DNA of 49,190 bases from Thermoplasmata archaeon (GCA_019594025.1 JAFDUB010000001.1:1-49190), one strand, 5' to 3'; shown: positions 11,830-40,906, counted from the first letter of the stretch. Notes: generated by a model from the sequence alone, not told the origin. Numbers and translations: made by a program.

Positions 11830-14800
11830 TCAAAGGTCGTCTATCAACTTCTCAGCCCGTTCACTCCAGGGATTCATCCCCATCTCCTCGAATTTATCCT
11901 TTGCAATGGATAGATTTCTTATTCCCATCTCAATATCATTTGCTTCAAGGTGGGTTTTGCCTAATTCGTAATATGCTCTAGCTAACTCAATCTCTTTATT
12001 TGATTTTTCAAGGGTCTCTACCACTTGATTCAACTCTTTTAAACTCCTTTCCAGGTCTCCTTCTTCCCTAAACGCCGTGCCGCTTATTCTCATACACACC
12101 ATCTCTCCTAAGGTGGTGCCTACTTCTCTTGAAATTCTCAAACCTTCGTCTATTCTTTTACGAGCTTTTTTTAAGTCTCCACTTTTTATAAACAACTCCC
12201 CCAAGTATCCACAGATTTCGATGTTTTCATATTTCTCACCGATTTTTTTGTGGAAATCATAGCTTTTTTCGTAAAGTCGAATAGCTTCATCGATCTCCCC
12301 CCGCTCCTTTTTTATCTCCCCCTGAAGGCTGTTCACCATAGCGACACCTTTCATATCTCCGATCTCATTCAATAAGTCCGATGCCTGGTTTACGTACTCC
12401 TCAGCCTGTTTCAGTTCTCCTTTCAATATATGCACGTTACTCATGAATCCAAGTGACATGGCCCACCCCTGTTTATCTCCCATCTCCTTACGTAGGGACA
12501 GACCTTTTGTTTGATACTCGATGGCTTGGTCTAGATCTCCCATGTCTAAATGTACGATACCAAGATTGTTGGTAGCCATGGCCATTCCCCTTTTATCACC
12601 TATACTTTTAAAGATCTTTAAAGCACGATCAAAATTTTCCTCAGCCTCTGTAAGCTCGTCGTTCATATATTGAAGTGTACCAAGGTTTGCCAATATGGCC
12701 GCCATGCCGCCTTTATCTCCGATATCCTTTTCAATTTCCAAACATCTTTTGTAAGTGTCAAGTGCTTTGTTGATTTCTCCTCTACATTTATAAACAACAC
12801 CGATGTTATTCAGAGACTTCGCTATACTTCTTTTATCCCCTATTTTTTCACGTATCTTCAGAGCCTCTTTTAAGTATTTATTAGCTTCCTCGTACTTTCC
12901 TTTATGAATCATCAAAGTACCTAAGTTATGATTTGAATTACTCTGCAGTTTTTCATCGCAGAAATCTTTAGATAACTCCTTCTCCTTCTCAAACATCTCT
13001 CCAGCCCCTTCAAAATCACCCTTTTGCATTAAGGTCCAGCCCTTCACTTCGTACAATCTGCAGGTTTCTACAGGATCTTCGTCGTATGTTTTAAGTGCCC
13101 TATCCACCAGTTCCTCCGCCTTTTCAAAATCGCCCTGGGTCTCCCATGTTCTAGCTATCTTCCGGTACATTCTTTGTATTCTTGACGTGTCATCCGTTTC
13201 TTCAACTATTCTTTCGTAATGCTCCCTGGAGGAAGATAGGTTACCCAAGAGTGAATTTACATCGCCCAAATTCTCTAGTAGTTTGAATCCGATGTCGCCT
13301 TTCTCTTTATCCCATAAATCCAGGGCCTCTTGGTACATCTTCAAGGCATCTTCCTGTGCATACACCTCCTCGGCACGTTTTCCGGCTTTATAATAATAGG
13401 AGATTGCCTTATCGGTGTTCCCGGCATTCTCAAAGTGGTTGGATAAATCAGAATAGTAATCCACTAAGTTGTTTTTATGAAGCTCTTCAATCTTTTCAGC
13501 GACTGTTTTATGCAGCCTTTTTTTCTTTATATCCGGTATGCTGTTGTATGCTGCTAGATGCACTAATGCATGGGTAAAGGCAAACATTTCTTCCTCAGGC
13601 AGTTCTTTCCATAAGTTCGTACCGAGCAGGACGTCTATATGATCAAAGGCGTCTAACTCTTCCATACCACATGTGTTCAACAATAGATCAAAGGGTATTT
13701 CCTCTCCAATTACACATCCCAGATGTAGAATTCTCCGAGTATCATCGGACAGCTGATCAAAACGTCTTTCTATGATGTTGATTATTATATTAGGTATGTT
13801 TATTGCTTTCGGGTCGTCGGGATAACGATTTTTTTTAGGGTCCAAATTACCTTCCTCCATTAGTCTTTTTATACATTCTTTAATGAAAAGCGGATTTCCC
13901 TCGGAAAGGTCATGAAGTAATTTCACAAAATCCGTTGGCACACTCGATACTCCCAACATTGCGGTTATTATCTTTTTCGTGTGTTTCCACTTTAACGGTT
14001 TTAATTCCAGCTCGTTGTAAATCCTCTCCCTTCTCATCCTTTGGCGTACCTCTTTTAATAAATCGTTCATCTTTACATCCCGAGGTCGGAAGGCACCAAT
14101 CACCAGCACTTTGGAATCCAATAGGTTCTCTGAAAGGTAATGCGTAAGCTGAAGAGTTGCCGCATCCGCCCATTGAATATCATCCAAGAATATGAGCAGT
14201 GGCTTCTTTTTAGCGAGGATACGTATATCCTCGGCAATCTCGAAAAAAGTCGCTCTCCTTTGATAATCGAACATCTTTTTATCTTCCGCACGGGGTCCGG
14301 ACTTGCCTGGATATATGGATGTAAGTTGAAAATGAGTATCCTTGTTTTTTGTGAATTCCTCGAAGGCCTTTTTAAAAGGTAGATATGGGTCCGAACTTTC
14401 AAAGTATGCTTTACCTGAAAGGAACACGAATCCTTTCTTTTTGGAATACTTTTTAAATTCTGATATCAAGCGTGTTTTTCCTATCCCTGAGTCACCAACT
14501 ACGAAAAGGACCATTCCTCCCTCTTCCTCCACCTCCTTCAAGGTTCGTTTGAGAAAATTCATCTCCTTTTTTCGATCGATGAATATATCCTCCTCTATAT
14601 CATCAACTTTAGTCAGGTCCAGGACTCCCTCGTCGTTTACTCTTGAAAGAGAGGTTAGAAGGGGATTGTCGCCCTTTATATATTGGTCTATGTCTTTTAC
14701 CATGACTTCACTTTTACCTTCGGGAGTGAGAATTGTTATTTTTTTGCCGTTGAATTTTTTAATTAAATACTGTGCCTTCCGAACTCCTTTTGGAGTAAGA

Positions 14801-15036
14801 AAATACACCTTCCTCTTTCTTTTCATTCCCTTTACACGCTTGATATCCTCCTCTATAAGACCTGTTTCATCCTCTACAATCTTACGTATCTCCTGACTTA
14901 AATGCGGTCTGCTGACTCCGACCGCATCGGCGATACCCGGTTGAGATATCTCATAGGGCACCTCGATTTTAGACTTGAGTTTATAGTATGGATATAAGTG
15001 TATTAATATCCTCTCTTTAACTGTTGACGACACCAT
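11830..15036 (-). CDS. wHTH - STAND/AAA_16 ATPase - TPR-array protein
   Basis: The probable start is the ATG at 15036 (MVSSTVKERIL...), not 15123. The N-terminal winged-HTH-like region reads ISQPGIADAVGVSRPHLSQEIRKI. Walker A is GDSGIGKT and Walker B/sensor is LLIFLDDIQWAD. More than 10 TPR-like repeats follow (...AISYYYKAGK..., NNIGVVYKCRGEINKALDTYKRCLEI...). Confidence 0.8.
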   Translation of the reverse strand: MVSSTVKERILIHLYPYYKLKSKIEVPYEISQPGIADAVGVSRPHLSQEIRKIVEDETGLIEEDIKRVKGMKRKRKVYFLTPKGVRKAQYLIKKFNGKKITILTPEGKSEVMVKDIDQYIKGDNPLLTSLSRVNDEGVLDLTKVDDIEEDIFIDRKKEMNFLKRTLKEVEEEGGMVLFVVGDSGIGKTRLISEFKKYSKKKGFVFLSGKAYFESSDPYLPFKKAFEEFTKNKDTHFQLTSIYPGKSGPRAEDKKMFDYQRRATFFEIAEDIRILAKKKPLLIFLDDIQWADAATLQLTHYLSENLLDSKVLVIGAFRPRDVKMNDLLKEVRQRMRRERIYNELELKPLKWKHTKKIITAMLGVSSVPTDFVKLLHDLSEGNPLFIKECIKRLMEEGNLDPKKNRYPDDPKAINIPNIIINIIERRFDQLSDDTRRILHLGCVIGEEIPFDLLLNTCGMEELDAFDHIDVLLGTNLWKELPEEEMFAFTHALVHLAAYNSIPDIKKKRLHKTVAEKIEELHKNNLVDYYSDLSNHFENAGNTDKAISYYYKAGKRAEEVYAQEDALKMYQEALDLWDKEKGDIGFKLLENLGDVNSLLGNLSSSREHYERIVEETDDTSRIQRMYRKIARTWETQGDFEKAEELVDRALKTYDEDPVETCRLYEVKGWTLMQKGDFEGAGEMFEKEKELSKDFCDEKLQSNSNHNLGTLMIHKGKYEEANKYLKEALKIREKIGDKRSIAKSLNNIGVVYKCRGEINKALDTYKRCLEIEKDIGDKGGMAAILANLGTLQYMNDELTEAEENFDRALKIFKSIGDKRGMAMATNNLGIVHLDMGDLDQAIEYQTKGLSLRKEMGDKQGWAMSLGFMSNVHILKGELKQAEEYVNQASDLLNEIGDMKGVAMVNSLQGEIKKERGEIDEAIRLYEKSYDFHKKIGEKYENIEICGYLGELFIKSGDLKKARKRIDEGLRISREVGTTLGEMVCMRISGTAFREEGDLERSLKELNQVVETLEKSNKEIELARAYYELGKTHLEANDIEMGIRNLSIAKDKFEEMGMNPWSERAEKLIDDL

Positions 15037-15131
15037 GGGACAAAGGGGTAATCGTGTGGTGATAAGTAAATTTTTCCTCTGTTTCCCACCGAAAAGTAAT
15101 AACAATAGTGTTCTATAGTCCACATAGTGAT

Positions 15132-22100: not shown

Positions 22101-23099
22101 TCAGCTAGACATTATATAGTTAATACTGATCTCAGATATATCCGATGCATAGGAACCGGTTCGGGAAATACTTTCAATTATGTAAGATAGGGGGGCAACG
22201 TCCTCCCGGTGCTCTTCCTTAATGTTTTTCATGAGCTCATCGTTTATCTTATCCAATTTCTTTCGCATATCGATGGAATGATTTGCATCATCTAAATTTT
22301 CTTCAAAGAATGCCTCAGATGCCTCTTCCATTATCTCTAAAGCTAGCTCACTTTCCTTTTTTATCCCATTTTTGAGTTCCTCTCCAAACCCATCAGAGAG
22401 CATCAATGTATTCTCGGCTATGCGAGCTGCGTGGTCTCCTATTCGCTCCATGGTTCGGGAGACAAGCATGTAACTCAAACTCCTTTCTTTCGATATCTTT
22501 AAGCTTTCAAGTAATCGTGGATTCGTAAGAACCATGTTGTAATGTTTTGTGATCATCCAGAACAATCTGTCACAGTCCGTATCTCTGGATATAACATCCT
22601 TAGCTAGCTCTTCATCATTCTCTAAAAATGCTTTAATCGCGTCCTGGTGCATCTTTTTTACTATCAAATACATCCTCCTTAACCCCTTTCTCTGGGAGAA
22701 CTCCGATGGATCGATGAGATCTTTAAGAATTACTCTGCTGTTGGACTCCTCGATTATCTCCGGGCCGATAACCATCCTTGTAAACTGCATTATAGCACTT
22801 CTTAATTCCGGCTTAATTTCTCCCTTAGCCTCCAATTTGATTTCGGAATAACCTGCCATGTACGTACCGATTAGAGACCTGATCAACGACGTGGGACTTT
22901 CCTTTGAAATATCCATTTCTTTAACATTCGCCTTTTTCTCGAACTCCCTTTCAGGGCTAACCACAATCGAGCCGTCGCTTTGAATGGATAGAACTACTGG
23001 ATCACCCGGCTTCAACTCTTTATCTGTCACCCATGGTTTAGGAAGAGAGACTATAAACGTAGAACCACCGGTTAACTGTACCTTTCTAGTTTCAATCAT
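22101..23099 (-). CDS. Phosphate uptake regulator, AbrB/SpoVT domain + PhoU repeats
   Basis: The N-terminus RKVQLTGGSTFIVSLPKPWV is a SpoVT/AbrB-like swapped hairpin. Two PhoU-like helical repeats follow (ERIGDHAARIAE, ISRTGSYASDISE). Confidence 0.8.
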   Translation of the reverse strand: MIETRKVQLTGGSTFIVSLPKPWVTDKELKPGDPVVLSIQSDGSIVVSPEREFEKKANVKEMDISKESPTSLIRSLIGTYMAGYSEIKLEAKGEIKPELRSAIMQFTRMVIGPEIIEESNSRVILKDLIDPSEFSQRKGLRRMYLIVKKMHQDAIKAFLENDEELAKDVISRDTDCDRLFWMITKHYNMVLTNPRLLESLKISKERSLSYMLVSRTMERIGDHAARIAENTLMLSDGFGEELKNGIKKESELALEIMEEASEAFFEENLDDANHSIDMRKKLDKINDELMKNIKEEHREDVAPLSYIIESISRTGSYASDISEISINYIMSS

Positions 23100-23118
23100 C
23101 GAAAGCTTAGCGTTCGAT

Positions 23119-23148
23119 ATCTATTTAGTTTTACCGCAATCTATTTAG
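23119..23148. repeat. 10-bp direct repeat ATCTATTTAG x2 with 20-bp periodicity upstream of the AbrB-PhoU gene
   Basis: Read directly. The copies are at 23119..23128 and 23139..23148, in the 59-nt gap between the DUF47 stop and the phoU-like start. Confidence 0.6.
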
Positions 23149-23158
23149 AAAGAGTGGT

Positions 23159-23848
23159 TCATTTGTTTTCTGTTGTTGCAACCAGCATATCGGCGACGTT
23201 CTCCGCATGGTCCGCTATTGAATCCATCCTATCAACTACCTTCAAAAGATGTATCGCGGTAAGGGGACTTTCGTCGTAATTGAATAACCATCGGGAAATT
23301 CTAGATTCTATTTTATCCGCTTCGTATTCCATCTGACATATCTGTTCATGTAACTCTCTAGTTTTTTCCTTAGATGATTTGCTGAAAGAGGTATTGAGCA
23401 CCTCGGTAAAAGTGTCCATAATCATATCATATGCTTTAGCGGCATCGAATATCTTGTCTGCGAATTGCTTGAAATCGTCGGATATGGTTTCGGGAATTTC
23501 TTCTTTCCTCATGGGTAATAGAACGCTCACGTTTTCAGCATTATCTATGATAGCGTCCGCTTCTTTCAACAATTTCATAAAGTCCTCTCGCCTCATGGGC
23601 ATGAAAATGAAGCGGGGTAGGTTTTCCCATATCTTCATCTTCACTTGATCTGCTTTGTGTTCTATTTTAGAGACCTTTTCAAAGTGGTCTTCCGCCATCT
23701 CAAATTCACCATCAACATACAACTTGATACCTTTTTTGAGCTCTTGTATTCCCAATTTGGTCAACTCTGCATGCTTACAAAGTCCATCGAAGGGTGATTT
23801 AAAGAAGGTATCTTCAAGACTTGCTCTCCTAAATTTTGCTCCCATCAT
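23159..23848 (-). CDS. DUF47 / TIGR00153-type PiT-associated PhoU-like protein
   Basis: 229 aa helical protein immediately downstream of the PiT transporter gene (18-nt gap), the usual partner arrangement. Confidence 0.72.
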   Translation of the reverse strand: MMGAKFRRASLEDTFFKSPFDGLCKHAELTKLGIQELKKGIKLYVDGEFEMAEDHFEKVSKIEHKADQVKMKIWENLPRFIFMPMRREDFMKLLKEADAIIDNAENVSVLLPMRKEEIPETISDDFKQFADKIFDAAKAYDMIMDTFTEVLNTSFSKSSKEKTRELHEQICQMEYEADKIESRISRWLFNYDESPLTAIHLLKVVDRMDSIADHAENVADMLVATTENK

Positions 23849-23866
23849 TTACACCTCTTTCTACCA

Positions 23867-25117
23867 TTATACAAAAAAATTCATTCCTAAATAGATTATT
23901 ACGCAAGTTATAGCTGCGATTGGCACCGTTATTAGCCATGAGATTACTATCCTCCTTATAACTGATAAATCTATCGCTTCTAACCCCCTTGCCAATCCCA
24001 CGCCCACCACCGCACCAACTACGGTATGACTAGTTGAGATCGGCATTCCCAGTTTACTAGCTACAAGTATCGTCGTTGCCGCACCGAAGTCAACGGCAAA
24101 ACCCCTGCTATTCGTCAGTTTGGTAACGCTAAAACCTACCGTTTTCATGACACGGTAACCCCAGGTAGAAATACCGATAGCTATACCTACCCCGCCCATC
24201 AGCAGCAGGTAATTTCCGCTTAAATAAAAAGGAAGAGGTTCACCTATAGGCATTGCATTTTCCACAGCAAGCATTAAAGGCCCGATGGCATTTGCAACGT
24301 CGTTGGCACCATGAGAGAATGCCACGAAACAAGAAGTGATTATCTGCAGATTCTTAAACACATTTTCGACACCCTCGTAATCATCTCCCCTTTCTATCCC
24401 TCTTACAAGGATCGGTTTTCCGATTATACCAAACAACCCGCCGATAGCTAATGATAGTACGATAGCTTCGAGGTTCGTTGGATATCTGCCAAATAATCTA
24501 AATGAAAGTGCCGTCTGGTACAACAAAGATAATGAAATTATAAAAAAGGTGGCTCCTATGAAAAGGGGACTTATTTTTTTGATAGTATTAAAAGGGTCTT
24601 CACTGTTAAAAATAATCCGAACTATTAGGCTGAATATGAGAAAGGAGATGATCGCCCCGGAGATCGGGGAGGTTATCCAACTCAATATTACTCTTCCCAA
24701 TGTATCCCATCCTATTATAGATGGTCCTCCGGCAACCAAACCGAAACCCAGCATCGCTCCAATGATCGAATGGGATGTTGATATGGGGAGAGATTTCCAT
24801 GTAGCAACCGTTACCCACAATGCGGCGGCAATAACCGCGGATAAAGAACCTAAAGCTAGAGCGGTCCTTGGGACTGCTTCAGGGTCGAAAATTCCACCCT
24901 TTACAGTCGCAGTGACGTGTTCGCCTACTAAAACTGCTCCCAACACAGTTAGTATCGATGCGATAATAATAGCCTGTTTGTATGTTATTGCCTTTGCACC
25001 TACAGCGGTGGACATGGAATTAGCAACATCGTTAGCACCGATGTTCCAAGCCATGTAAAGGCCGCCGGCTAGGGCGGTAGCCAGTACTGCGGCCTGAAAA
25101 GTTATAGAACTTAACAT
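23867..25117 (-). CDS. Inorganic phosphate transporter, PiT family
   Basis: 416 aa polytopic protein with the duplicated signature GANDVAN (GANDVANSMSTAVG and GANDVANAIGP). Confidence 0.9.
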   Translation of the reverse strand: MLSSITFQAAVLATALAGGLYMAWNIGANDVANSMSTAVGAKAITYKQAIIIASILTVLGAVLVGEHVTATVKGGIFDPEAVPRTALALGSLSAVIAAALWVTVATWKSLPISTSHSIIGAMLGFGLVAGGPSIIGWDTLGRVILSWITSPISGAIISFLIFSLIVRIIFNSEDPFNTIKKISPLFIGATFFIISLSLLYQTALSFRLFGRYPTNLEAIVLSLAIGGLFGIIGKPILVRGIERGDDYEGVENVFKNLQIITSCFVAFSHGANDVANAIGPLMLAVENAMPIGEPLPFYLSGNYLLLMGGVGIAIGISTWGYRVMKTVGFSVTKLTNSRGFAVDFGAATTILVASKLGMPISTSHTVVGAVVGVGLARGLEAIDLSVIRRIVISWLITVPIAAITCVIIYLGMNFFV

Positions 25118-25191: not shown

Positions 25192-25875
25192 TTATTCCAC
25201 TATAGTTCCATGGAAGTCTTTATCACCGATAGCTGAAGATAAGTTCTCTAAATCATCCCCTGAGAGGATGTAGGCTTTGATCCGAGCTCTTTTAATTATC
25301 TTCGCAGCTAAGGGATCGAAAACAACGTTCGGCCCGGCACCGCCTTCGACCTTTTCTACTATGGATATCAATGAATCATAGTCCAGTTCATCGTACCTCT
25401 CCGCCTTTTCATTCTTACGCGGGTCCTCGGAGTAAACACCGTCTACCGAGGTGACGTTGATGAGACGTTTACATCTAAGCCTCTCGGCCAGCATGGCGGA
25501 GACCGCATCGGTGGTATGTCCAGGGTGTGTCCCGCCCATTACCACCATCGGGTAATGCCTGCCGGCCATCATGGCTTCGTGGAAGTTTCTAGCCGGTGTG
25601 GGGTTAACGTCTTTTCCCAAAGCTAGGGAAAGTAATTTGGCGTTTAGACGTGAAACTGATATGCCCAACTCGTCCAATGAAGCTTCGTCAGCTTCTAATT
25701 CTCGACCCCAATTGATATACTTCCTAGCGATCCAGCCTCCTCCGACAACAAGATAAAGTGAATAGGATTTAGAGCATATTCGAAGAGTATCGGCTAGAGA
25801 TCGCAGGTAAGATACATCACGGTCCTTGGGTAACATTATAGACCCACCGATAGATACTACGATTTCTTCTTTCAC
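25192..25875 (-). CDS. pyrH: UMP kinase (archaeal type)
   Basis: IVVSIGGS..., VVGGG and the GGTHPGHTTDAV motif. The conserved core begins right after a GTG at 25875 that is preceded by AGGTG. The ATG at 25968 used by the ORF track would add 31 non-conserved residues and overlap the upstream gene. Confidence 0.85.
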   Translation of the reverse strand: MKEEIVVSIGGSIMLPKDRDVSYLRSLADTLRICSKSYSLYLVVGGGWIARKYINWGRELEADEASLDELGISVSRLNAKLLSLALGKDVNPTPARNFHEAMMAGRHYPMVVMGGTHPGHTTDAVSAMLAERLRCKRLINVTSVDGVYSEDPRKNEKAERYDELDYDSLISIVEKVEGGAGPNVVFDPLAAKIIKRARIKAYILSGDDLENLSSAIGDKDFHGTIVE

Positions 25876-25925
25876 TGTAACACCTGTAGGGATAAAGTGA
25901 TTTGCTATATAAATGGATACGGTAA

Positions 25926-28900
25926 TCACTCCTTTTTCTTGGTGACTAAAGAGAAAATCGTTATACATAGCAGTATAACGATAAACCAGCCTAAACTGGT
26001 GAACTCAGGTATGTTGGGTGAGATCATGAACGGCTCTAAACGTATCGAAGTGTCGATACCTGATAGGATATTGGTATGCTCCATCTGGAAATCCCATGAA
26101 TCTTCAGTTCGGTTATAGGTCCATGAGGCTAGAGTGTCGTCCATCATAGCTACAAGGAAAATGTCTCCTCTTGTATCCTGTATAAGCTGTATCCTCTCCG
26201 GATAGTCCACGTTCTCGTAAGTTATACTTCCAATCTCTCCCCAGTTTCCTTCGTGGTACCTGCGGTATACTGGATATCCATATTCTTCAGTACCCCAGAC
26301 GAGTATAACTGTGTCCTGAACCGAGGAATCGTACAACAGGTCGAAACATCTGTTCCCCAACGTGAAAGTGTCCTGATCATGAGTTGTTTCGTCTACAAAG
26401 TTGTTGTCTTCGATCTTTAATGTTTTCAAAGGCCATGAGTTTTCAGTCTCATAACTCACCGCTATGGTCATTCCATCTCCGCTGGGATCCGGTGCAACCG
26501 ATATCCATCTGCCTTCTCCTCCAATATCGTAGCTGAATTCCGTTCCCCAACCCTCCTCAGGTCTCCACAATCTCATGTACAATTGACTGCTGCCGTCCCT
26601 GCCCCACACAAACAGAGCGTTACCCGCGTTATCGAAGGTAATGTCCTCACTCGGTAGTATCTCCCCATTCATCGCTGGTACCGGCCCATCGTCCAAAGCC
26701 TGTAGGTCGATCATCTCGTTCCCGTCCCATATCAAGCCGACTCGATGGTTATTTTCGAAATGGAATGTGTTATAAGCAGTTAAAAAGATGGCGATATCGT
26801 CGCTGACTGGTGAAGAGGATGTTTCGATCCAGTCTATTTGACACATGGCCCGGGCGAGATCGTACATGATTTCTTCCGACCACGACGCATTTTCCCTGTC
26901 CCACGTTCTATAGTTGAAGAAAGAACGAGGCTCGTCTTCATCCGCGGTAGCGTTGTAGTAGATTATATGCCCCTGTCCGGTGAGACCCTCGTAGGCCACA
27001 TCGAAAACTCGATGTGTACTGTCAACTCCTATGTTCATGGCGATGGGTTCTGCACCGGTCCAATCTGTTCCATTCCAAACGTTGGCAAATATATGAACCC
27101 CTCCATCGGCGTCCTCCACTTGAACCGCAATTATCTTTTCTTCCAAAGTAGGATTCTGCCGGTTTACCAACCATTGTATTTCAGGTCCACCAATTTGCCC
27201 CTCTTCGGTTCCACCCCAGTTCTCCCCATCCCACCATGAGTACTCGAAGTCTCCATCTCCGATTCCATAGGATATCAAAACCTCCGACATCTCCTCCATG
27301 AGCTCTTCGTAATCCCGGATCTCAGCATTCCGAACTGACCTATGAGGTGAAAGAACAACCCGATCCCCTCGTCCTTCCCAGTTGATTGTTTTGATGAGAC
27401 CGGTTTCAAAAGATGTACCACCAGCATAAATTTCCAGTTGATTGTACCATTTAGCACACTCCGGTTCGCTCTCTTCCTCTATCCATTCACCGTTTTCATT
27501 ATAGTAGGAGGTAACATAAAGTATTTCGCCGTACTGCCCCCTTACAACCACTTTTCTGTCCGCGTCGCTGCCGTTATATAACATTCCAGAACCATCTTCG
27601 TCTATGTAAAATATGACTTCATCTTCTCCAGATATTCTTTCAACCACGGGGTCGGGTTCTACAGGGTCGGGCTCGTAATCTGGAGTGTACACATCAACCC
27701 CTTCCGGTATGGCGGTTCCCTGGAGAACCCTGCCTCTTGTTTTCACGTAAAAGAAGATATCCTCCTCGATATATCCATATTCTATAATATCAACGTTAGC
27801 TGGTAGGTTGTATTCCACACTGTGCTCCTCTTTTAAATCCTCCCATTCAACAAAAACACCGTCTATTTGCGCTTCATATGAAACTTCTTCAAAATAATAG
27901 GAACGTGGTTCACCGGATATCGTTGTCACAGCTTCAGTTTCCACATCCTTTACCTGTACGGTAATAATCTCATCGGGGGTCGCGGTACCGTTAACTGTAA
28001 TTCTTATGCTGGTGTTTTTCTCCACTAACAAGGGATAATCTACATCAACCTCTACGGTCTCGAAATTACCGTTAAATGAGATGTCTTGAACCGTCACTTC
28101 ATCACCTCTAGCGGTCAAGTTAAGCACCAGTATGTCTTCATCAGGCGAGATCACATGGTCGTTTACAGGACTGTGTTGATAAATTGACAATGAAGGTTTT
28201 CCGGGGACGATGACATGGTCGCTGTGAGCCTCTACTCCCTTTGAATCCCTTGAGACAATATATATTTCTACGTCCTCTTCGTCCTGAACGGTAACGTGAG
28301 GAATCGAGAACTCCAATTCGTTTTCCACTTTAGCGACGTCTATATTACCTATAATCTCCCAATCATTCCAGTTTCTTTGGTCGGTTCGATTTTCGTACTG
28401 ATATACAGCTCCAAAAATTTCATTCTCCCATCCCTGCACCTTTACCAGATAATTAGCCTTTATGGTGGGTGTGTAGTAATGGTTTTGGTCTTCGTCCGTG
28501 GTGATATTAAGGAAGAAGTAGAATGAATCCATGTTCCCTTCTTCATCTCCAACCAGTATTTCCTCCTCCGTTCGGATATAGAAGAACAAACGTTCGTCAC
28601 AAGTAGTCACAGCGCTTTCTTCGATGCTGACGCTGGACGATATCTCTTCAAGTTGGAAACTATAGGTGTCTATTTCTCTCCAATCTTCAAAATCACCGTC
28701 AATGACCATCCTTTCATCATCTTCGAAGGGAGAATAGAACAAGAAAAAGGCAAAGGATGATATTATTATCAATGTAATAACGAAAAGTGCGACGGGAGCT
28801 TTTTTCCTTTCTGTTTTCCGTCTCTTCGTTTTAACGGGTCCTGCGGATTTTCTTCCATTAACTAAACCACCTCCAATCTCCACATCCCTTGCACGCAAAC

Positions 28901-29639
28901 CGTTTACTTTACCCTCCCTAGGTTCGTCCTTTTCTTTTTTCTCGGCAATGGGCATGTACACTTTTTTAGGCTTTTTTTCTTGTCTCTTCTTCTCTTCTTC
29001 TAATTTGGATAAAAGCCCGTTCGCTTTTTCACAAGCGTTTTTGTAATTGTGTAATATAAGCTCCTCTTCTATCTTGTCGATATCTTTCGAGTATTTATCG
29101 AGTGATAGATGGTCTTTTTGCTCTTTCCAGATGTCTTTTATTCCTTCAAAATCCTTATTGGTCTTTTTTAAATATCCTATGTCTCTAAGTATTCCGTAAA
29201 GTCTCTCCCACTCTTTATCGGTTACACCATGGCTTATCTGCCGATGTATATCCTGTAACTCTTTTTCAAAGTAAGCACGGTGATCGTTGACCACCACTCC
29301 CGCTTCAATACCTTTTTGTATTGAATTTTCAACCTTTTCAATCACTTTATTTATATCCTTTTTTTCCTTCTCCTCTTCCTCACAATGGGTGCATGATCCT
29401 TCCGATTCGATAGGTTCACCACAGTTTTCACAAACCTCCATATCTGCTAGTATCTCTTTAACGTCTTCCAATATTCGCCGAGCTGTTTTTGGCCCGATGC
29501 CCTTTACTTTCTTTAGCTCTCCCTCATCAAGCTCCGAAAGGTCCTTTAAGGACTGAACTGCAAGTTCATCCACGATTGTATTAGCGGTGGTTTCTCCTAT
29601 CCCTTTTATCTGTTGAAGATGGTGGATTATTTTTCCCAT
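25926..29639 (-). CDS. Large bitopic membrane protein: cytoplasmic (HhH)2 + zinc ribbon + coiled coil, TM, repeat-rich exodomain, PEF-CTERM-like tail
   Basis: 1237 aa. HhH motifs are IKGIGETTANTIV and VKGIGPKTARRIL, and the zinc ribbon is CENCGEPIESEGSCTHC. A Lys/Glu-rich helical region ends in KTKRRKTERKK, followed by a TM helix (APVALFVITLIIISSFAFFLFY, aa about 281-302). The acidic exodomain has IDG-F-(D/V)-W modules and about 7 W-x-G-x-x-W repeats. The C-terminus is NIPEFTSLGWFIVILLCITIFSLVTKKKE. Confidence 0.85.
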   Translation of the reverse strand: MGKIIHHLQQIKGIGETTANTIVDELAVQSLKDLSELDEGELKKVKGIGPKTARRILEDVKEILADMEVCENCGEPIESEGSCTHCEEEEKEKKDINKVIEKVENSIQKGIEAGVVVNDHRAYFEKELQDIHRQISHGVTDKEWERLYGILRDIGYLKKTNKDFEGIKDIWKEQKDHLSLDKYSKDIDKIEEELILHNYKNACEKANGLLSKLEEEKKRQEKKPKKVYMPIAEKKEKDEPREGKVNGLRARDVEIGGGLVNGRKSAGPVKTKRRKTERKKAPVALFVITLIIISSFAFFLFYSPFEDDERMVIDGDFEDWREIDTYSFQLEEISSSVSIEESAVTTCDERLFFYIRTEEEILVGDEEGNMDSFYFFLNITTDEDQNHYYTPTIKANYLVKVQGWENEIFGAVYQYENRTDQRNWNDWEIIGNIDVAKVENELEFSIPHVTVQDEEDVEIYIVSRDSKGVEAHSDHVIVPGKPSLSIYQHSPVNDHVISPDEDILVLNLTARGDEVTVQDISFNGNFETVEVDVDYPLLVEKNTSIRITVNGTATPDEIITVQVKDVETEAVTTISGEPRSYYFEEVSYEAQIDGVFVEWEDLKEEHSVEYNLPANVDIIEYGYIEEDIFFYVKTRGRVLQGTAIPEGVDVYTPDYEPDPVEPDPVVERISGEDEVIFYIDEDGSGMLYNGSDADRKVVVRGQYGEILYVTSYYNENGEWIEEESEPECAKWYNQLEIYAGGTSFETGLIKTINWEGRGDRVVLSPHRSVRNAEIRDYEELMEEMSEVLISYGIGDGDFEYSWWDGENWGGTEEGQIGGPEIQWLVNRQNPTLEEKIIAVQVEDADGGVHIFANVWNGTDWTGAEPIAMNIGVDSTHRVFDVAYEGLTGQGHIIYYNATADEDEPRSFFNYRTWDRENASWSEEIMYDLARAMCQIDWIETSSSPVSDDIAIFLTAYNTFHFENNHRVGLIWDGNEMIDLQALDDGPVPAMNGEILPSEDITFDNAGNALFVWGRDGSSQLYMRLWRPEEGWGTEFSYDIGGEGRWISVAPDPSGDGMTIAVSYETENSWPLKTLKIEDNNFVDETTHDQDTFTLGNRCFDLLYDSSVQDTVILVWGTEEYGYPVYRRYHEGNWGEIGSITYENVDYPERIQLIQDTRGDIFLVAMMDDTLASWTYNRTEDSWDFQMEHTNILSGIDTSIRLEPFMISPNIPEFTSLGWFIVILLCITIFSLVTKKKE

Positions 29640-32823: not shown

Positions 32824-33903
32824 TTAGTAAACGTTTTGGATTTTCTTCACCTTTTTATCCGGAACCACCAAGTGCTTTGATTTTATACCAGTAGCTACCA
32901 GCATCACTCGCAAGGTATTTTCCAGTTCAGGCTTGATGTTGCATCCCCATATTATATGCGCATCGGGACTGACAACCCTTTCTATCTCCTCGGCCACCAT
33001 TTCAGCTTCTCGGATCGTCATGCTGCTGCCGCCGGTGACGTTGATGAGAGCTCCTTTGGCTCCACTGATATCTACATCCAATAAGGGGGAGTTAATCGCT
33101 TCTTCAATTGCTTCGAGAGCTCTATTATCTCCCGATGCTGAAGATTCACCCATACCTACCATGGCCATCCCAGCGCTCTGCATTACCGTCTTCAGATCGT
33201 TGTAGTCCAAGTTCACAAGTCCGGGTTTTGTGATCATCTCTGTCAGACCCTTAATTGAACGCATCAGTATTTCATCGGCGATCTTGAAAGCTTTGTTCAA
33301 GGATAATCTTGGGAACAGTTCAACCAGTTTATCGTTCGGTATTATTATCACCGTATCGGTGAGATTCTTCATCTGTTGGATTCCCCATACCGCGTTCTTT
33401 TCTCTTGATTTTCCTTCGGAAGAAAATGGTTTCGTCATAACCGCTATGGTTAAAGCTCCTTTTTCCTTCGCCATTCTTGCTATCGGTGCGATTGAACCGG
33501 TTCCGGTACCTCCTCCTAAACCGCAGGTAAGAAAAACAATATCTGCACCTTCTAGTATCGGTTCGAAGTTATCGATAGCTTCTTCAGCTGCTTTTTCACC
33601 TATCTCTGGTTTAGAACCTGCACCAAGACCACGGGTTAGGTTACGACCCATCAGTACCTTTCGATCGGCGTGTACACTCAAAAGGTGCTGGGCATCTGTG
33701 TTGGCCGCTACAAGGGCGGCACCTTTTACACCTTCTTCGGCAATTCGATTTAACGTGTTTCCTCCGGCTCCACCGAGACCAACTATCACTATCTTGGTCT
33801 TGAGACCCTTTAGAACCTCAACTAGTTCTTCATCCATATCTTGGTCCGAAAAAACCTCTTTTTTATCATCATCTTTTAGGGCGTTCTTTATGAGGGAGTC
33901 CAT
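32824..33903 (-). CDS. ftsZ: Cell division protein FtsZ (FtsZ1-like)
   Basis: 359 aa with IVGLGGAGGNTLNRI, NTDAQHL and the tubulin signature GLGGGTGTGS. Confidence 0.93.
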   Translation of the reverse strand: MDSLIKNALKDDDKKEVFSDQDMDEELVEVLKGLKTKIVIVGLGGAGGNTLNRIAEEGVKGAALVAANTDAQHLLSVHADRKVLMGRNLTRGLGAGSKPEIGEKAAEEAIDNFEPILEGADIVFLTCGLGGGTGTGSIAPIARMAKEKGALTIAVMTKPFSSEGKSREKNAVWGIQQMKNLTDTVIIIPNDKLVELFPRLSLNKAFKIADEILMRSIKGLTEMITKPGLVNLDYNDLKTVMQSAGMAMVGMGESSASGDNRALEAIEEAINSPLLDVDISGAKGALINVTGGSSMTIREAEMVAEEIERVVSPDAHIIWGCNIKPELENTLRVMLVATGIKSKHLVVPDKKVKKIQNVY

Positions 33904-36875: not shown

Positions 36876-37925
36876 TCAAGACACATAGCGAATTCTACTA
36901 TCTTTTTTATTGTTCATCGCTTTATGCCCGTTATCTAAACCTGTCAATACAGACATCAGTTTGATCTTGTGTTGATACTGGGGATCTACTCGTGCACCAA
37001 AGATAACATTTACACTAGGATCTAAATTCGAGGTAAGCTTACTCACCACGTCGTGCATCTGCTTGACGGAGAGGTCAGATCCACCGGTCAAATGAATGAG
37101 AGCCTTTTTAGCTCCAGTATAGTCTACGGGTAGAAATGGATTTTTACTTGCTTCATCCACTACATTTAGGTAGTTATCGATACTCGACACCCCACGCATG
37201 AGTGTTGACACCCCTCCAGTACCGAGGACTGATCGTAGATCGTTGAAATCTAGGTTGATTAAGGAAGGAAGCGTGACGGTTTCAGTTACACTTTTGATAA
37301 GGTCGGATATAAGAGAGTCCATAACCCCAAATCCCTGATCTATCGGTAAATCTGGAACCACTTTTAACAGCGTGTCGTTTTCCAACACAATGGTTGAATT
37401 GGAGTAAGCCTCTATTTTTCTTAAACCGGCAAAAGCCATTTTTCTTTTTGTTCTTCCCTCGCAAGAAAAAGGCAGGGTAACTATACTTATTACCATGCAT
37501 TTGCACCTTTTGGCGATCTCACAAACCACAGGGGCTGCTCCGGTTCCGGTTCCACCTCCCAATCCCGCGGTCACAAAGACCAGGTCAGTTTTTTTAAACA
37601 ATCTTTTAAAACCTGAGGCTGCACTTTCTGCACACTTTTCCCCTAAACGTGGATCTCCGCCCGCCCCCAGTCCACGATTGAATTCCTTGCCTATCAGCAT
37701 TCTCGTGTCCGCCTGCACGTTTAAAAGATGTTCTTTATCCGTATTAACCGCAATAGTTTCGGCACCGTATATACCTAAATTACTCAATCGGTTCGTGCTG
37801 TTGCATCCTGCCCCACCTACTCCTAATACTAAAACCGATAGACCTGGAGTGTCCTCCATTTCCGAGGAGTAGTATTTTGCCACCATTTTTTTTACCTTCT
37901 CATGTTTCAGGATAATACCTGCCAA
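36876..37925 (-). CDS. ftsZ: FtsZ paralog (FtsZ2-like)
   Basis: 349 aa with VLGVGGAGCNSTNRL, NTDKEHL and GLGGGTGTGAAPV. It is preceded by an RHH gene, as in the cdrS-ftsZ2 arrangement. Confidence 0.9.
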   Translation of the reverse strand: MAGIILKHEKVKKMVAKYYSSEMEDTPGLSVLVLGVGGAGCNSTNRLSNLGIYGAETIAVNTDKEHLLNVQADTRMLIGKEFNRGLGAGGDPRLGEKCAESAASGFKRLFKKTDLVFVTAGLGGGTGTGAAPVVCEIAKRCKCMVISIVTLPFSCEGRTKRKMAFAGLRKIEAYSNSTIVLENDTLLKVVPDLPIDQGFGVMDSLISDLIKSVTETVTLPSLINLDFNDLRSVLGTGGVSTLMRGVSSIDNYLNVVDEASKNPFLPVDYTGAKKALIHLTGGSDLSVKQMHDVVSKLTSNLDPSVNVIFGARVDPQYQHKIKLMSVLTGLDNGHKAMNNKKDSRIRYVS

Positions 37926-38476: not shown

Positions 38477-40906
38477 ATGGTTGACATCCAGAAGCAAAAA
38501 AAAGATGGTAATGAATTCGTAGGCCGGAAAAGAGAACTAAACAAATTACAGAGCTATATGGCTAAAGCATTGGAATCAAAGGGCCAGCTAGTCCTTATAA
38601 ACGGAGAAGCCGGGGTTGGTAAGACAGTATTTGCAGAAGAGTTTGCGGATATGTGCAGGGAACAGGGTTTCAAAGTATTACGGGGAAGATGTCTTTACTT
38701 CGAAAGTACGGATCCTTATATCCCCTTTTTCGAGGCCTTGAAAGACCACATTTCACCCGAAGAAAAAGATACAGACAACAATGTTGGTATTGGTGTTACG
38801 GGATATGGTGTCTCTCAGACCCGCTCCGGTGGAGTCCCTATGGGTCTACTCGGTGTGGCTGCAGAAGAGGAGGAACATGAAACCATAGATATATCCTTCT
38901 CCGATAGAAGGGAGATAATGTTTGATAAGGTAACGGACCTGATCCAAAGTCTAGCGGAAAAGGACCCTGTACTTTTTTTCATAGATGACCTTCAGTGGAT
39001 AGATGGGGCTTCAGCTCAACTACTCCATCATCTGACACGACACATTAGATATAACAGAGTGCTCATCCTTGGAGCCTACAGACCTGAAGAATTGAAAGTT
39101 GATGAGGATTTTCCCCTGGAATCCGTATTGGATCGGATGAAGGAGGAGAAACTTTTCGAGGAAATCGAGCTAAAGCGGTTACCTTTTAAAGATTCGTCCC
39201 TGATGATAAAGAAAATTTTAAAATCTGAAGCCCTACCGCAATCTTTCCTACTCATGCTTTACAGAGAAACTGAAGGCAATCCCTATTATATAACAGAAAT
39301 ACTTAATTCTATGGTGGAGGAAGGCATCATCGACCCTTACTCCTATGACTGGAATCCCGAGGAAACCTTAACGGATGTAATTGTTCCTCCCTCCATAAAG
39401 GACATAACGAGTAGACGGATAGAACGCCTCAGTCAAAAAGAAAAAAAGGTTTTAATGTATGCATCGGTCATCGGTACCGAGTTCGACTTTCAGGTATTAG
39501 AGAACTCCATGAGATTGGATGTGATTGAACTATTGGATATAATCGATGAGCTTGAGAATAGAGGGTTGATACATGAAAAAGAAAGTGTTGAGGAGGAAGT
39601 GTTCAGGTTTAACCACGTTCAGATTCGATTGACCATGTACTCGAGTTTAGGTAAAAGTCGCAAGCGTGTACTGCACAATCAAATAGGAAAGGCAATCGAA
39701 GAGGTGTATCAAGATAACATTGAGGAATATGTATTCGCTCTCGGTAGGCACTTCTATGAAGGTAAAAATTATGACAGGGCCTATGATTATTCTTTAAAAG
39801 CTGCGGAAAAGGCTCTCGGCAGCTTCGCCATCGAGAATGCAATCGAGCATTTCCAGAAAGCTCGAGATTCGTTGAAGTATATCGAAGTCGAGGACAAAGA
39901 GCAAAAGGAAATCGAGCTACTCGAACAGATCGGTCATCTAGCTTATGATGTGAGCGATTGGGACGCCGCTCGAAATGCCTTTAACACTCTATTGGAACTG
40001 TCAAAGAAAAGAGATAACAGAGAGCTTGAAGCAGAATCTTTGAGGATGCTAGCCAATATTTTAAGGGATATACAGAAATACTCAGAGTCGGAATCGTATT
40101 ATCAACAGTCTTTGAAAATATCTGAGGACATTGGGTATGCTGAAGGTATTGCAGATTCACATAAAGGATTAGGTTATATCCATTGGCGAGAAGGCATGTT
40201 TAAGGAGGCGGTGGAGCATTACGGGACCGCAGTCAAAGTAGCCCAAGAATCAGATGTAAAGTCCATATTGTCTCTTACCTATATCGACTTGGGAAATACA
40301 TACGCCCATCGGGGAGAAAACGACCAAGCAATAGAGTATTATTTAAAGGCCATACCTTCCTTAAAAGAGCAAAATTCATGGAGAGAGTTGGCAAGGGCTT
40401 ACAACAACCTAGGCGATCAATACATGAAAAAAGAAGAATGGGATAAGGTAATAGAAACCTTCGATAAAACCATCGAGTACGCCAAAAAGATTGGAAACAA
40501 AACGTTCGTGGGTTGGGGTTATTTCAACAAAGCTGAAGCTTTAGCTAGGATGGGTAATACCAACGAAGCAGAGATTTACGCTAAAAGGGCTGAAAGCATA
40601 GTGAGGAAGCTGAGCGATTTGTTGGGAATATCGTCGGCATATCGGGTACGGGGAATTATAGGGAGGATAGAGGAAAATTATGATGACGCTCTTAAACATA
40701 TGTGGAAAGCTATGGATGTTATAGCGGATATGGACATTCCCTTTACTAAAGCGGAAACCAAGTACAACATCGGTTTAATTTATCTGGATAAAGGAGACAT
40801 CGAAAAGGCGAAAATGTACTTCGAAGACGCTAAATCAACATTTGAAAGAATCGGGGCCGAGCAGTATCTGAAAAAAGTGGACTCCCGATTATCTCAGCTT
40901 TCATAG
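38477..40906 (+). CDS. STAND/AAA_16 ATPase - TPR-array protein (paralog of 11830..15036, no HTH)
   Basis: 809 aa with FVGRKRELNKL, Walker A GEAGVGKT and FFIDDLQWIDGAS. It shares the YFESTDPYIPF motif with the other paralog (YFESSDPYLPF). The C-terminal half is TPR repeats. Confidence 0.8.
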   Translation: MVDIQKQKKDGNEFVGRKRELNKLQSYMAKALESKGQLVLINGEAGVGKTVFAEEFADMCREQGFKVLRGRCLYFESTDPYIPFFEALKDHISPEEKDTDNNVGIGVTGYGVSQTRSGGVPMGLLGVAAEEEEHETIDISFSDRREIMFDKVTDLIQSLAEKDPVLFFIDDLQWIDGASAQLLHHLTRHIRYNRVLILGAYRPEELKVDEDFPLESVLDRMKEEKLFEEIELKRLPFKDSSLMIKKILKSEALPQSFLLMLYRETEGNPYYITEILNSMVEEGIIDPYSYDWNPEETLTDVIVPPSIKDITSRRIERLSQKEKKVLMYASVIGTEFDFQVLENSMRLDVIELLDIIDELENRGLIHEKESVEEEVFRFNHVQIRLTMYSSLGKSRKRVLHNQIGKAIEEVYQDNIEEYVFALGRHFYEGKNYDRAYDYSLKAAEKALGSFAIENAIEHFQKARDSLKYIEVEDKEQKEIELLEQIGHLAYDVSDWDAARNAFNTLLELSKKRDNRELEAESLRMLANILRDIQKYSESESYYQQSLKISEDIGYAEGIADSHKGLGYIHWREGMFKEAVEHYGTAVKVAQESDVKSILSLTYIDLGNTYAHRGENDQAIEYYLKAIPSLKEQNSWRELARAYNNLGDQYMKKEEWDKVIETFDKTIEYAKKIGNKTFVGWGYFNKAEALARMGNTNEAEIYAKRAESIVRKLSDLLGISSAYRVRGIIGRIEENYDDALKHMWKAMDVIADMDIPFTKAETKYNIGLIYLDKGDIEKAKMYFEDAKSTFERIGAEQYLKKVDSRLSQLS

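Follow-up and report, generated by a model that had tools for sequence, protein, structure and literature searches.

A putative surface-display protein family of Thermoplasmatota with exchangeable cytoplasmic heads, a retained N-terminal anchor and a PEF-CTERM-like tail

The 49,190-nucleotide stretch of DNA from a Thermoplasmata archaeon analysed here (GCA_019594025.1, JAFDUB010000001.1:1-49190; "the window" throughout, at its full length) carries on its minus strand a gene for a protein of 1237 amino acids (aa), which we call the target. We propose, with a probability of roughly 0.6, that the target is a modular protein for surface display or adhesion, equipped with an N-in signal anchor, a lectin-like beta-propeller and a PEF-CTERM-class tail, and that it represents a large family in Thermoplasmatota. 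This reading is based on what the relatives keep and what they exchange, because the membrane helix, the stalk behind it and the C-terminal tail are conserved, while the cytoplasmic head and the distal exodomain vary. An earlier note, made from the sequence alone and taken up at several points below, had given the open reading frame (ORF) exactly; it has an ATG start (Table 1).

A word-indexed search with the whole protein returned the target and one orthologue cluster only, and a second one with a 19-sequence alignment of the core returned no match at E <= 1e-10, probably because low-complexity words dominated its candidates. For an exhaustive HMMER search without word filter, a profile was made by aligning aa 270-1237 of the target with its orthologue P0002. 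Of the 1.84 billion cluster representatives scored with it, 753 reached E <= 1e-3, among them 357 with E <= 1e-10 and 40 with E <= 1e-30. These matches split into two separable modules, namely a core, which comprises the first transmembrane helix (TM1) and about 480 residues (target aa 285-770), and a distal region. Among the 150 best matches, 135 include TM1 together with the stalk or at least its beginning; the whole core with its three beta-sandwiches is aligned in 90. A PEF motif, a helix and a basic cluster end 82 of the 135 core-containing members, and a helix with a basic cluster ends 101 of them. The 119 members that have an initial methionine carry a median of 150 aa before the helix, and up to 882; at least two h-h-N-G motifs (h, hydrophobic residue) precede the helix in 85 of these 119, at least two C-x2-C pairs are found in 42, and a G-h-G motif of helix-hairpin-helix (HhH) type in 12. 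Pfam recognises HHH_5 heads in P0004, P0034, P0040 (here together with TPR and zinc ribbons) and P0080, and double zinc ribbons in P0008. Judged from their sequences, the cytoplasmic heads are interchangeable: G-h-h-N-G repeats, zinc ribbons, TPR, (HhH)2 or no head at all. The distal domains vary likewise, and comprise the propeller, a subtilase-like region (P0007, P0009) and FG-GAP-like and Asp-box-type repeats, those other than the propeller being recognised by eye. The core had no Pfam match in any member scanned and no NCBIfam model, and a literature search returned nothing describing this family or architecture. The earlier claim of an undescribed architecture holds to this extent, but singular it is not, with at least 753 cluster representatives.

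A scan for loci with an alignment of the four closest sequences, covering one genome per GTDB species (the window's own genome not being among them), recovered 64 loci, 63 of which lie in metagenome-assembled genomes (MAGs) of Thermoplasmatota type. These MAGs are labelled Candidatus Saliniplasma, Thermoplasmata, Thermoplasmatota, Methanomassiliicoccales, 'Methanobacteriota' or 'Euryarchaeota' (soil and sediment bins), 'archaeon' and marine group III, and cluster members bear names such as 'hypothetical protein [Candidatus Saliniplasma sp.]' and 'helix-hairpin-helix domain-containing protein [Thermoplasmata archaeon]'. Candidatus Saliniplasma is placed in Candidatus Halarchaeoplasmatales, Thermoplasmata, which fits both the archaeal housekeeping genes of the window and the very acidic exodomain of the target. 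Saliniplasma MAGs encode at least two family paralogues each, with differing heads; for instance, Ca. Saliniplasma sp. BLK6-3.bin.216 (GCA_046497075.1) has L002 and L003, both IPEF-tailed, and Ca. S. halalkaliphilum HAP6 has L004, which is tailed, and L008, whose gene runs off the contig. Tandem copies occur at other loci, and family genes are also present on the closed MAG chromosomes CP070751.1 and CP070732.1. Between the target and its nearest orthologue (64% identity) no synteny was found, as the flanking genes differ. The sole non-archaeal locus, L065 in a Bacteroidales rumen MAG (JAGABI010000020.1), is weak, with two ORFs matching the core hidden Markov model (HMM) at E < 1e-5. It may stem from horizontal transfer or from contamination, or the sandwich domain may be more widespread.

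Table 1. Predicted features of the target and their positions in the window
Feature	Residues (aa)	Position	Strand	Basis or remark
Whole ORF	1237 plus stop codon	25926..29639	(-)	uninterrupted, ATG start
(HhH)2 domain, cytoplasmic; hairpins IKGIGETTA and VKGIGPKTA	7-61	29457..29621	(-)	Pfam HHH_5
Zinc-ribbon-like C-x2-C-x9-C-x2-C	70-86	29382..29432	(-)	Cys 70, 73, 83, 86
Lys/Glu-rich linker	87-243	28911..29381	(-)	composition
Juxtamembrane segment: KVNG at 244, LVNG at 259, then KTKRRKTERKK	244-280	28800..28910	(-)	family hallmark
TM1, N-in signal anchor	281-303	28731..28799	(-)	hydropathy peak 2.79; helix in model
Beta-sandwich 1 (IDGDFEDW ... FFYIRT)	311-480	28200..28709	(-)	AlphaFold2 (AF2) core model; conserved family core
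Middle beta-sandwich (Ig-like), boundaries approximate	481-585	27885..28199	(-)	AF2 model
Beta-sandwich 2 (IDGVFVEW ... FFYVKT), Pro/Glu-rich loop	586-770	27330..27884	(-)	AF2 model; conserved in family
Beta-propeller, eight W-x-G-x-x-W-type units	787-1207	26019..27281	(-)	AF2 and Foldseek
PEF-CTERM-like tail: NIPEF, second transmembrane segment (TM2), KKKE	1209-1237	25929..26015	(-)	motif read from sequence

Hydropathy gave exactly two hydrophobic segments, aa 281-303 and aa 1213-1234, so that the single transmembrane helix claimed earlier is found as TM1 and the count has to be raised by the second. The basic stretch KTKRRKTERKK had been placed correctly before the helix: it begins at aa 270 and abuts TM1, and acidic sequence follows behind. 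The net charge is 0 over aa 1-280 and -136 over the exodomain. Throughout the family, the net charge amounts to +3.75 in the 15 residues before TM1 and to -1.83 after it, and 99% of 105 members are consistent with the N-in topology that the earlier note had assigned and that the charge pattern of the target likewise indicates. Furthermore, most family heads carry runs of G-h-h-N-G, such as GLVNGNGLTNG. In 102 heads, 556 copies of the motif were observed versus 38.6 expected from shuffling, and it is rare in exodomains (1.2 per 1000 aa). From the last copy to TM1 the median distance is 26 aa (interquartile range 24-30). The target retains two degenerate copies (aa 244-262, 28854-28910 (-)), the last one 22 aa before TM1; its orthologue has FING at the equivalent place and the paralogue P0004 several GFINGL copies. 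No model in Pfam or NCBIfam covers these repeats. From the sequence comparison, the conserved element on the cytoplasmic side is the G-h-h-N-G repeat and not the (HhH)2 domain.

AF2 modelling of the core from 19 aligned, diverse members, the target being the first, gave a long helix and then three all-beta domains, at a mean pLDDT (per-residue confidence) of 83.5 and a pTM (overall fold confidence) of 0.81. The two IDGxFxxW modules, at aa 313 and aa 592, fall within the first and the third beta-sandwich; they are weakly similar to each other (BLASTP E 0.001), in line with the two related modules noted earlier, and a further sandwich stands between them. Foldseek of the core versus the Protein Data Bank (PDB) returned generic matches only, among them antibody fragments, alpha-2-macroglobulin MG domains, adhesins and the surface-layer (S-layer) protein SbsB, with TM-scores below 0.3 (query-normalised at most 0.16), and we therefore assign the core fold no further than "three beta-sandwiches". 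Sandwich 1 matches TIGR04145 (Firmicu-CTERM domain) below threshold (23 bits, cut-off 50), a match that recurs in relatives. All N-x-S/T sequons of the protein, ten in number where at least ten had been reported, lie in the exodomain.

The distal region (aa 770-1210) is separable from the core, as it matched a different set of proteins and is present in three copies in P0006 and in two in P0081; one distal-region protein clusters with a protein of a Bathyarchaeota MAG. Its AF2 model, from a 12-sequence alignment, is all-beta with 32 strands (pLDDT 83.4, pTM 0.88), which suggests eight four-stranded blades, and Foldseek matched it to beta-propellers at probability 1.0. The top matches are the Photorhabdus lectins PHL and PLL (E ~1e-9, target-normalised TM 0.61-0.67), followed by sialidases, rhamnose-glucuronate lyase and NirN. 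The beta-propeller guessed in the earlier note is thus borne out by the model, and its "about seven" W-x-G-x-x-W units become eight on counting.

A large, acidic and anchored exodomain with sequons and a sortase-type tail is also what the haloarchaeal S-layer glycoprotein offers. Hence the family could be read as a structural envelope protein, forming an S-layer-like coat of wall-less archaea, with the heads and G-h-h-N-G repeats linking this coat to a scaffold inside the cell or to the nucleoid. The wide spread of the family in the phylum, and the presence of SbsB and adhesin Ig-chains among the weak fold matches, would agree with such a coat. However, those fold matches are non-specific, with TM-scores below 0.3, and divergent paralogues in one genome, with differing distal domains, suit display or adhesion better than a single abundant lattice protein, which makes the coat unlikely in our view.

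At the C-terminus, NIPEF (aa 1209-1213) is followed by a hydrophobic helix (aa 1213-1234) and the end KKKE, which the earlier note had taken as a PEF-CTERM sorting signal. For PEF-CTERM, the enzyme assigned by Haft et al. 2012 is archaeosortase C (cited in passages of PMC5244752 and PMC9723798). In the family, 53 of 100 relatives' tails match the PEF-CTERM model TIGR03024 at E <= 0.1, the best at 2.2e-9, and P0012 passes its curated cut-off over the full length (23.6 vs 23 bits); fewer tails also match the PEFG-CTERM, Heimdall-CTERM and Loki-CTERM models. P-E is near-invariant in family tails. With an HMM of the 100 relatives' tails, from which the target had been left out, the target tail scored 17.3 bits (E 3.4e-4 among 2423 ORF tails), and only family genes outscored it. 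We regard the target tail as a divergent PEF-CTERM-class signal by homology and motif, not by the curated test, so that the earlier claim stands for the motif and for the homologous tails, while the match of the target itself to TIGR03024 did not materialise.

Several observations weigh against the reading of the target as a sortase-tailed surface adhesin. The sequons of the exodomain are only marginally enriched (10 vs 5.75 +/- 2.2 by shuffling, P ~0.05), and the likeness of the propeller to lectins is one of fold, at 10-12% identity. The target tail did not match TIGR03024 with its last 32 or 57 aa (E <= 10), with its last 45 aa (E <= 0.1) or as part of the full-length protein, and no other NCBIfam sorting-signal model matched it either; it has no Pro about six residues after PEF, and Lys in place of the Arg-rich end of most relatives. 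Canonical archaeosortase substrates have a cleaved signal peptide and no retained anchor with a cytoplasmic domain. The 49-kb window holds no archaeosortase gene: PitA is its only multi-pass membrane protein of suitable size, and the target its only family gene with a PEF tail. Likewise, no exosortase or archaeosortase was matched among 62 multi-pass proteins at most 10 kb from family genes at the 64 loci, which amounts to about 1 Mb of flanks and not to whole genomes (two NCBIfam scans of 10 proteins each and one Pfam scan of 42, five of which had been scanned before). Among these neighbours were CDF transporters, PstCA, UbiA, FlaK-like A24 peptidases, PrsW and DUF373 proteins.

Hence the tail might be a second transmembrane anchor and nothing else. 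The protein would then be a hairpin that crosses the membrane twice and has its N- and C-terminus on the cytoplasmic side, handled by no sortase and with PEF conserved for some other reason. The target tail missing TIGR03024, the lack of an archaeosortase gene near the 64 loci or in the window, and the FlaK-like A24 peptidase and PrsW genes that recur beside family genes instead would all fit such a hairpin. However, more than half of the relatives' tails do match the PEF-CTERM model, some well above its cut-off, and the tripartite layout with its near-invariant P-E is what a sorting signal predicts. Archaeosortase genes, moreover, need not adjoin those of their substrates, and with about 1 Mb of flanks covered, the archaeosortase-free surroundings neither support nor refute processing. 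A plain second anchor is thus possible though doubtful, and by analogy with characterised tails we infer that the target tail may be processed. In Haloferax volcanii, ArtA substrates are described as having their PGF-CTERM tail cleaved and a prenyl lipid put in its place (as cited in a passage of PMC12462473).

At about 15 of the 64 loci, mostly in soil Thermoplasmata MAGs, the next gene downstream of the family gene encodes a FlaK-like A24 (prepilin-type) peptidase (L021 12270-13238, L024 14295-15272, L026 13424-14338, L029 13419-14375, L040 12387-13388, L051 11839-12807 and L060 13392-14420, these seven on the minus strand, and about eight more loci). This neighbour prompted us to consider a class III (prepilin-type) signal, which was rejected because family members share no [KR]-G site for cleavage ahead of TM1. 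PrsW protease (3 loci) and DUF373 (6 loci) genes are further recurrent neighbours.

The cytoplasmic head of the target comprises the two HhH motifs, the four-cysteine ribbon and the Lys/Glu-rich stretch that the earlier note had listed, all of which were recovered. Its aa 7-61 match Pfam HHH_5 (PF14520) with 45.9 bits (gathering cut-off 27, E 8e-12), contain two G-h-G hairpins (GIG at aa 13-15 and aa 47-49), and are matched by several other HhH models of Pfam. In the PDB, the HhH region of Thermus thermophilus PolX was hit by the same residues (E 3.8e-7); weaker hits of the head were RuvA, uS13, ComEA, RecR and haloarchaeal eL32 with its N-terminal extension. The ribbon cysteines 70, 73, 83 and 86 are all kept in the orthologue P0003, the paralogue P0004 and L003-L009; Pfam gave sub-threshold matches to DZR only, and a RecR-like arrangement of HhH and zinc ribbon was weakly matched in the PDB (E 0.01). 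The fractions of Asp plus Glu and of Lys plus Arg over aa 100-272 are 0.20 and 0.22. Head and linker differ in their conservation: the heads of target and orthologue are 57% identical across 103 aa, whereas P0003 has an acidic repeat in place of the linker, and the linkers of target and P0004 do not align except for the h-h-N-G segment, weakly (E 0.15). The linker thus appears to be a poorly constrained spacer. The head is probably a real, folded and conserved module, with a putative role in non-specific nucleic-acid binding or protein contacts.

The best named NCBIfam model for the heads is PRK12766, a haloarchaeal L32e with N-terminal HhH extension, at 21.9 bits for the target (aa 4-85, 29385-29630 (-)) and 38.8 bits for P0034; the L32e of Haloarcula marismortui was also matched by the target head in the PDB. 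From these sequence matches, the head may have its origin in an HhH-bearing haloarchaeal L32e.

An inward nucleic-acid-binding-type domain below a large exodomain led the earlier note to a likeness with ToxR and CadC. The protein would then be a one-component regulator, whose exodomain senses a ligand while the membrane-tethered (HhH)2-zinc head binds DNA and alters transcription, and the N-in topology as well as a head that stays 57% identical in the orthologue while the linker diverges would suit this. However, (HhH)2 domains contact the backbone of DNA whatever its sequence, and the Pfam and NCBIfam scans of the target returned no Trans_reg_C, winged-helix or other helix-turn-helix (HTH) family, only HhH and weak zinc-ribbon matches. 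Homologues with the same core carry zinc ribbons, TPR, bare G-h-h-N-G repeats or no head; no gene neighbourhood is conserved with the nearest orthologue as a regulated operon would be; and a second membrane segment with KKKE follows the exodomain. The likeness is weakened by the exchangeable head, the non-specific (HhH)2 and the two membrane segments, and a regulator of this type seems quite improbable to us.

Joining an HhH protein to a surface protein could also be an artefact, in which a cytoplasmic HhH gene and a surface-protein gene were misassembled near 28.7-28.9 kb, a possibility that the earlier note had itself raised. The G+C content indeed drops across the gene, from 0.467 (26-28 kb) to 0.402 (28-30 kb), but this shift is accounted for by the composition of the Lys/Glu-rich head. 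More decisively, independent assemblies share the junction. P0002, a partial protein from a Candidatus Saliniplasma MAG, is 64% identical to the target, and its cluster member P0003, which an independent Logan assembly contains as a full-length protein of 1163 aa, agrees with the target in the succession of (HhH)2, four-cysteine ribbon, charged linker, basic stretch, helix, exodomain, NIPEF, helix and KKK. In the Saliniplasma MAG, the P0002/P0003 gene is split between a contig end (L043, with head, helix and first IDG motif) and a contig start (L002). The junction of head, helix and core is also found in the paralogues L003, L004, L005, L006 and L009, of about 1750 aa, on five other MAG contigs, and in the more distant P0034, P0040 and P0080. 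The target is therefore not an assembly chimera; misassembly is refuted to the point of being a vanishing chance.

Taking the target as a modular surface protein, we envisage the following arrangement. A cytoplasmic part of about 280 aa, with (HhH)2, zinc ribbon, spacer, h-h-N-G motifs and basic stretch, leads into the N-in anchor, and the membrane-proximal stalk of three sandwiches carries the distal propeller, which it would hold off the membrane. Very acidic and probably N-glycosylated, the propeller would be presented by the stalk on the cell surface of a halophilic archaeon and act there in adhesion by binding ligands or glycans, and the stalks of relatives would carry other binding or catalytic domains. 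The tail could be kept as a second anchor, or be cut at PEF by an archaeosortase-type enzyme and a lipid added, as for PGF-CTERM and ArtA in Haloferax. As the N-terminal helix is presumably not removed, the mature protein would stay tied to the cytoplasm, and thus be fixed at both ends even after any processing. The (HhH)2-zinc head may bind nucleic acid without sequence specificity, or a partner protein, and is likely an accessory, exchangeable module and not the core function.

A bolder extension would see in the family a Thermoplasmatota-specific class of outside-to-inside coupling proteins, where the external binding domain is wired through stalk, helix and G-h-h-N-G repeats to swappable heads, of which the (HhH)2-zinc type tethers DNA (nucleoid, plasmid or incoming) to surface contacts. 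We consider this speculative and rather improbable. If true, wall-less archaea would link adhesion between cells or to a substrate with the genome, for example in DNA exchange, segregation or contact signalling, and, with a sortase-processed PEF tail, the family would provide the first substrates of an archaeosortase to retain a domain in the cytoplasm.

Our preferred reading as modular surface proteins also has consequences of its own. The envelopes of uncultured Thermoplasmatota, including soil and sediment lineages, marine group III, relatives of Methanomassiliicoccales and the halophilic Halarchaeoplasmatales, are barely known, and the family adds hundreds of sequence clusters with a fixed stalk, a PEF-type signal and an unmodelled cytoplasmic repeat. 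It also provides a starting point for studying how archaea without a cell wall adhere to surfaces or partners. Should the tails be processed, the archaeosortase system would extend to N-terminally anchored proteins with cytoplasmic domains, unlike its exported substrates with cleaved signal peptides. In addition, a profile of the core would give a name to many proteins whose present annotation is 'hypothetical' or the misleading 'helix-hairpin-helix domain-containing protein'.

The remainder of the window encodes EF-2, two FtsZ proteins, PitA/PhoU, an amino-acid kinase and oligoendopeptidase F. The UMP-kinase-like ORF of the amino-acid kinase (25192-25968 (-)) overlaps the 3' end of the target by 43 nucleotides as listed; since its Pfam domain starts only at residue 36, translation probably begins further downstream, and the overlap would then result merely from having chosen the first ATG. 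Beside it, 22101-25117 (-) holds a phosphate-transporter-like gene (416 aa, seven predicted helices, PitA by eye) and then two PhoU-type genes, one of them with an N-terminal MazE/AbrB-like domain. Two paralogues of the FtsZ/tubulin family lie 3 kb apart (32824-33903 (-) and 36876-37925 (-)), with ORFs between them that look ribosomal-protein-like by eye. Furthermore, there are two large, STAND/MalT-like proteins with AAA_16 ATPase and TPR, at 11830-15123 (-) (1097 aa) and 38477-40906 (+) (809 aa).

Among known systems, the PEF-CTERM proteins (TIGR03024), putative ArtC substrates, are alike in their tripartite C-terminal signal, large extracytoplasmic domain and, as far as the Saliniplasma MAGs indicate, several paralogues per genome, and many tails of the target's homologues match their model. 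The target differs in that its own tail falls below the model and that its N-terminus is a retained anchor behind a cytoplasmic region of 280 aa instead of a cleaved signal peptide; in addition, the passages cited above on PEF-CTERM deal with Methanosarcinales and anaerobic methanotrophic archaea (ANME), whereas the target belongs to Thermoplasmatota. Compared to known archaeosortase substrates, the combination of a PEF-class tail with a retained N-terminal anchor and a cytoplasmic domain is thus unusual. The S-layer glycoprotein of H. volcanii (PGF-CTERM, ArtA) likewise joins a halophile's acidic exodomain with sequons to a motif, a helix and a basic tail, but its motif is PGF instead of PEF and belongs to another sortase class, no sequence similarity was detected, and it has neither the cytoplasmic domain nor the N-terminal anchor of the target. 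ToxR and CadC share the N-in nucleic-acid-binding-type domain, the membrane helix and the large external domain, yet they use an OmpR-type winged helix, a single membrane helix and a free extracytoplasmic C-terminus, where the target has (HhH)2 with a zinc ribbon, two membrane segments and an exchangeable head. The head itself is reminiscent of RecR, in which HhH is closely followed by a Cys4 ribbon (E 0.01), and of the haloarchaeal eL32 extension with its HhH module (PRK12766); all scores are far under the family cut-offs, the target has neither the Toprim domain of the former nor the L32e domain of the latter, and its module is tethered to the membrane. Finally, the Photorhabdus PLL/PHL lectins and the sialidase propellers are likewise propellers of W-rich blades, at only 10-12% identity, while the 32 strands of the target suggest a propeller of eight blades.

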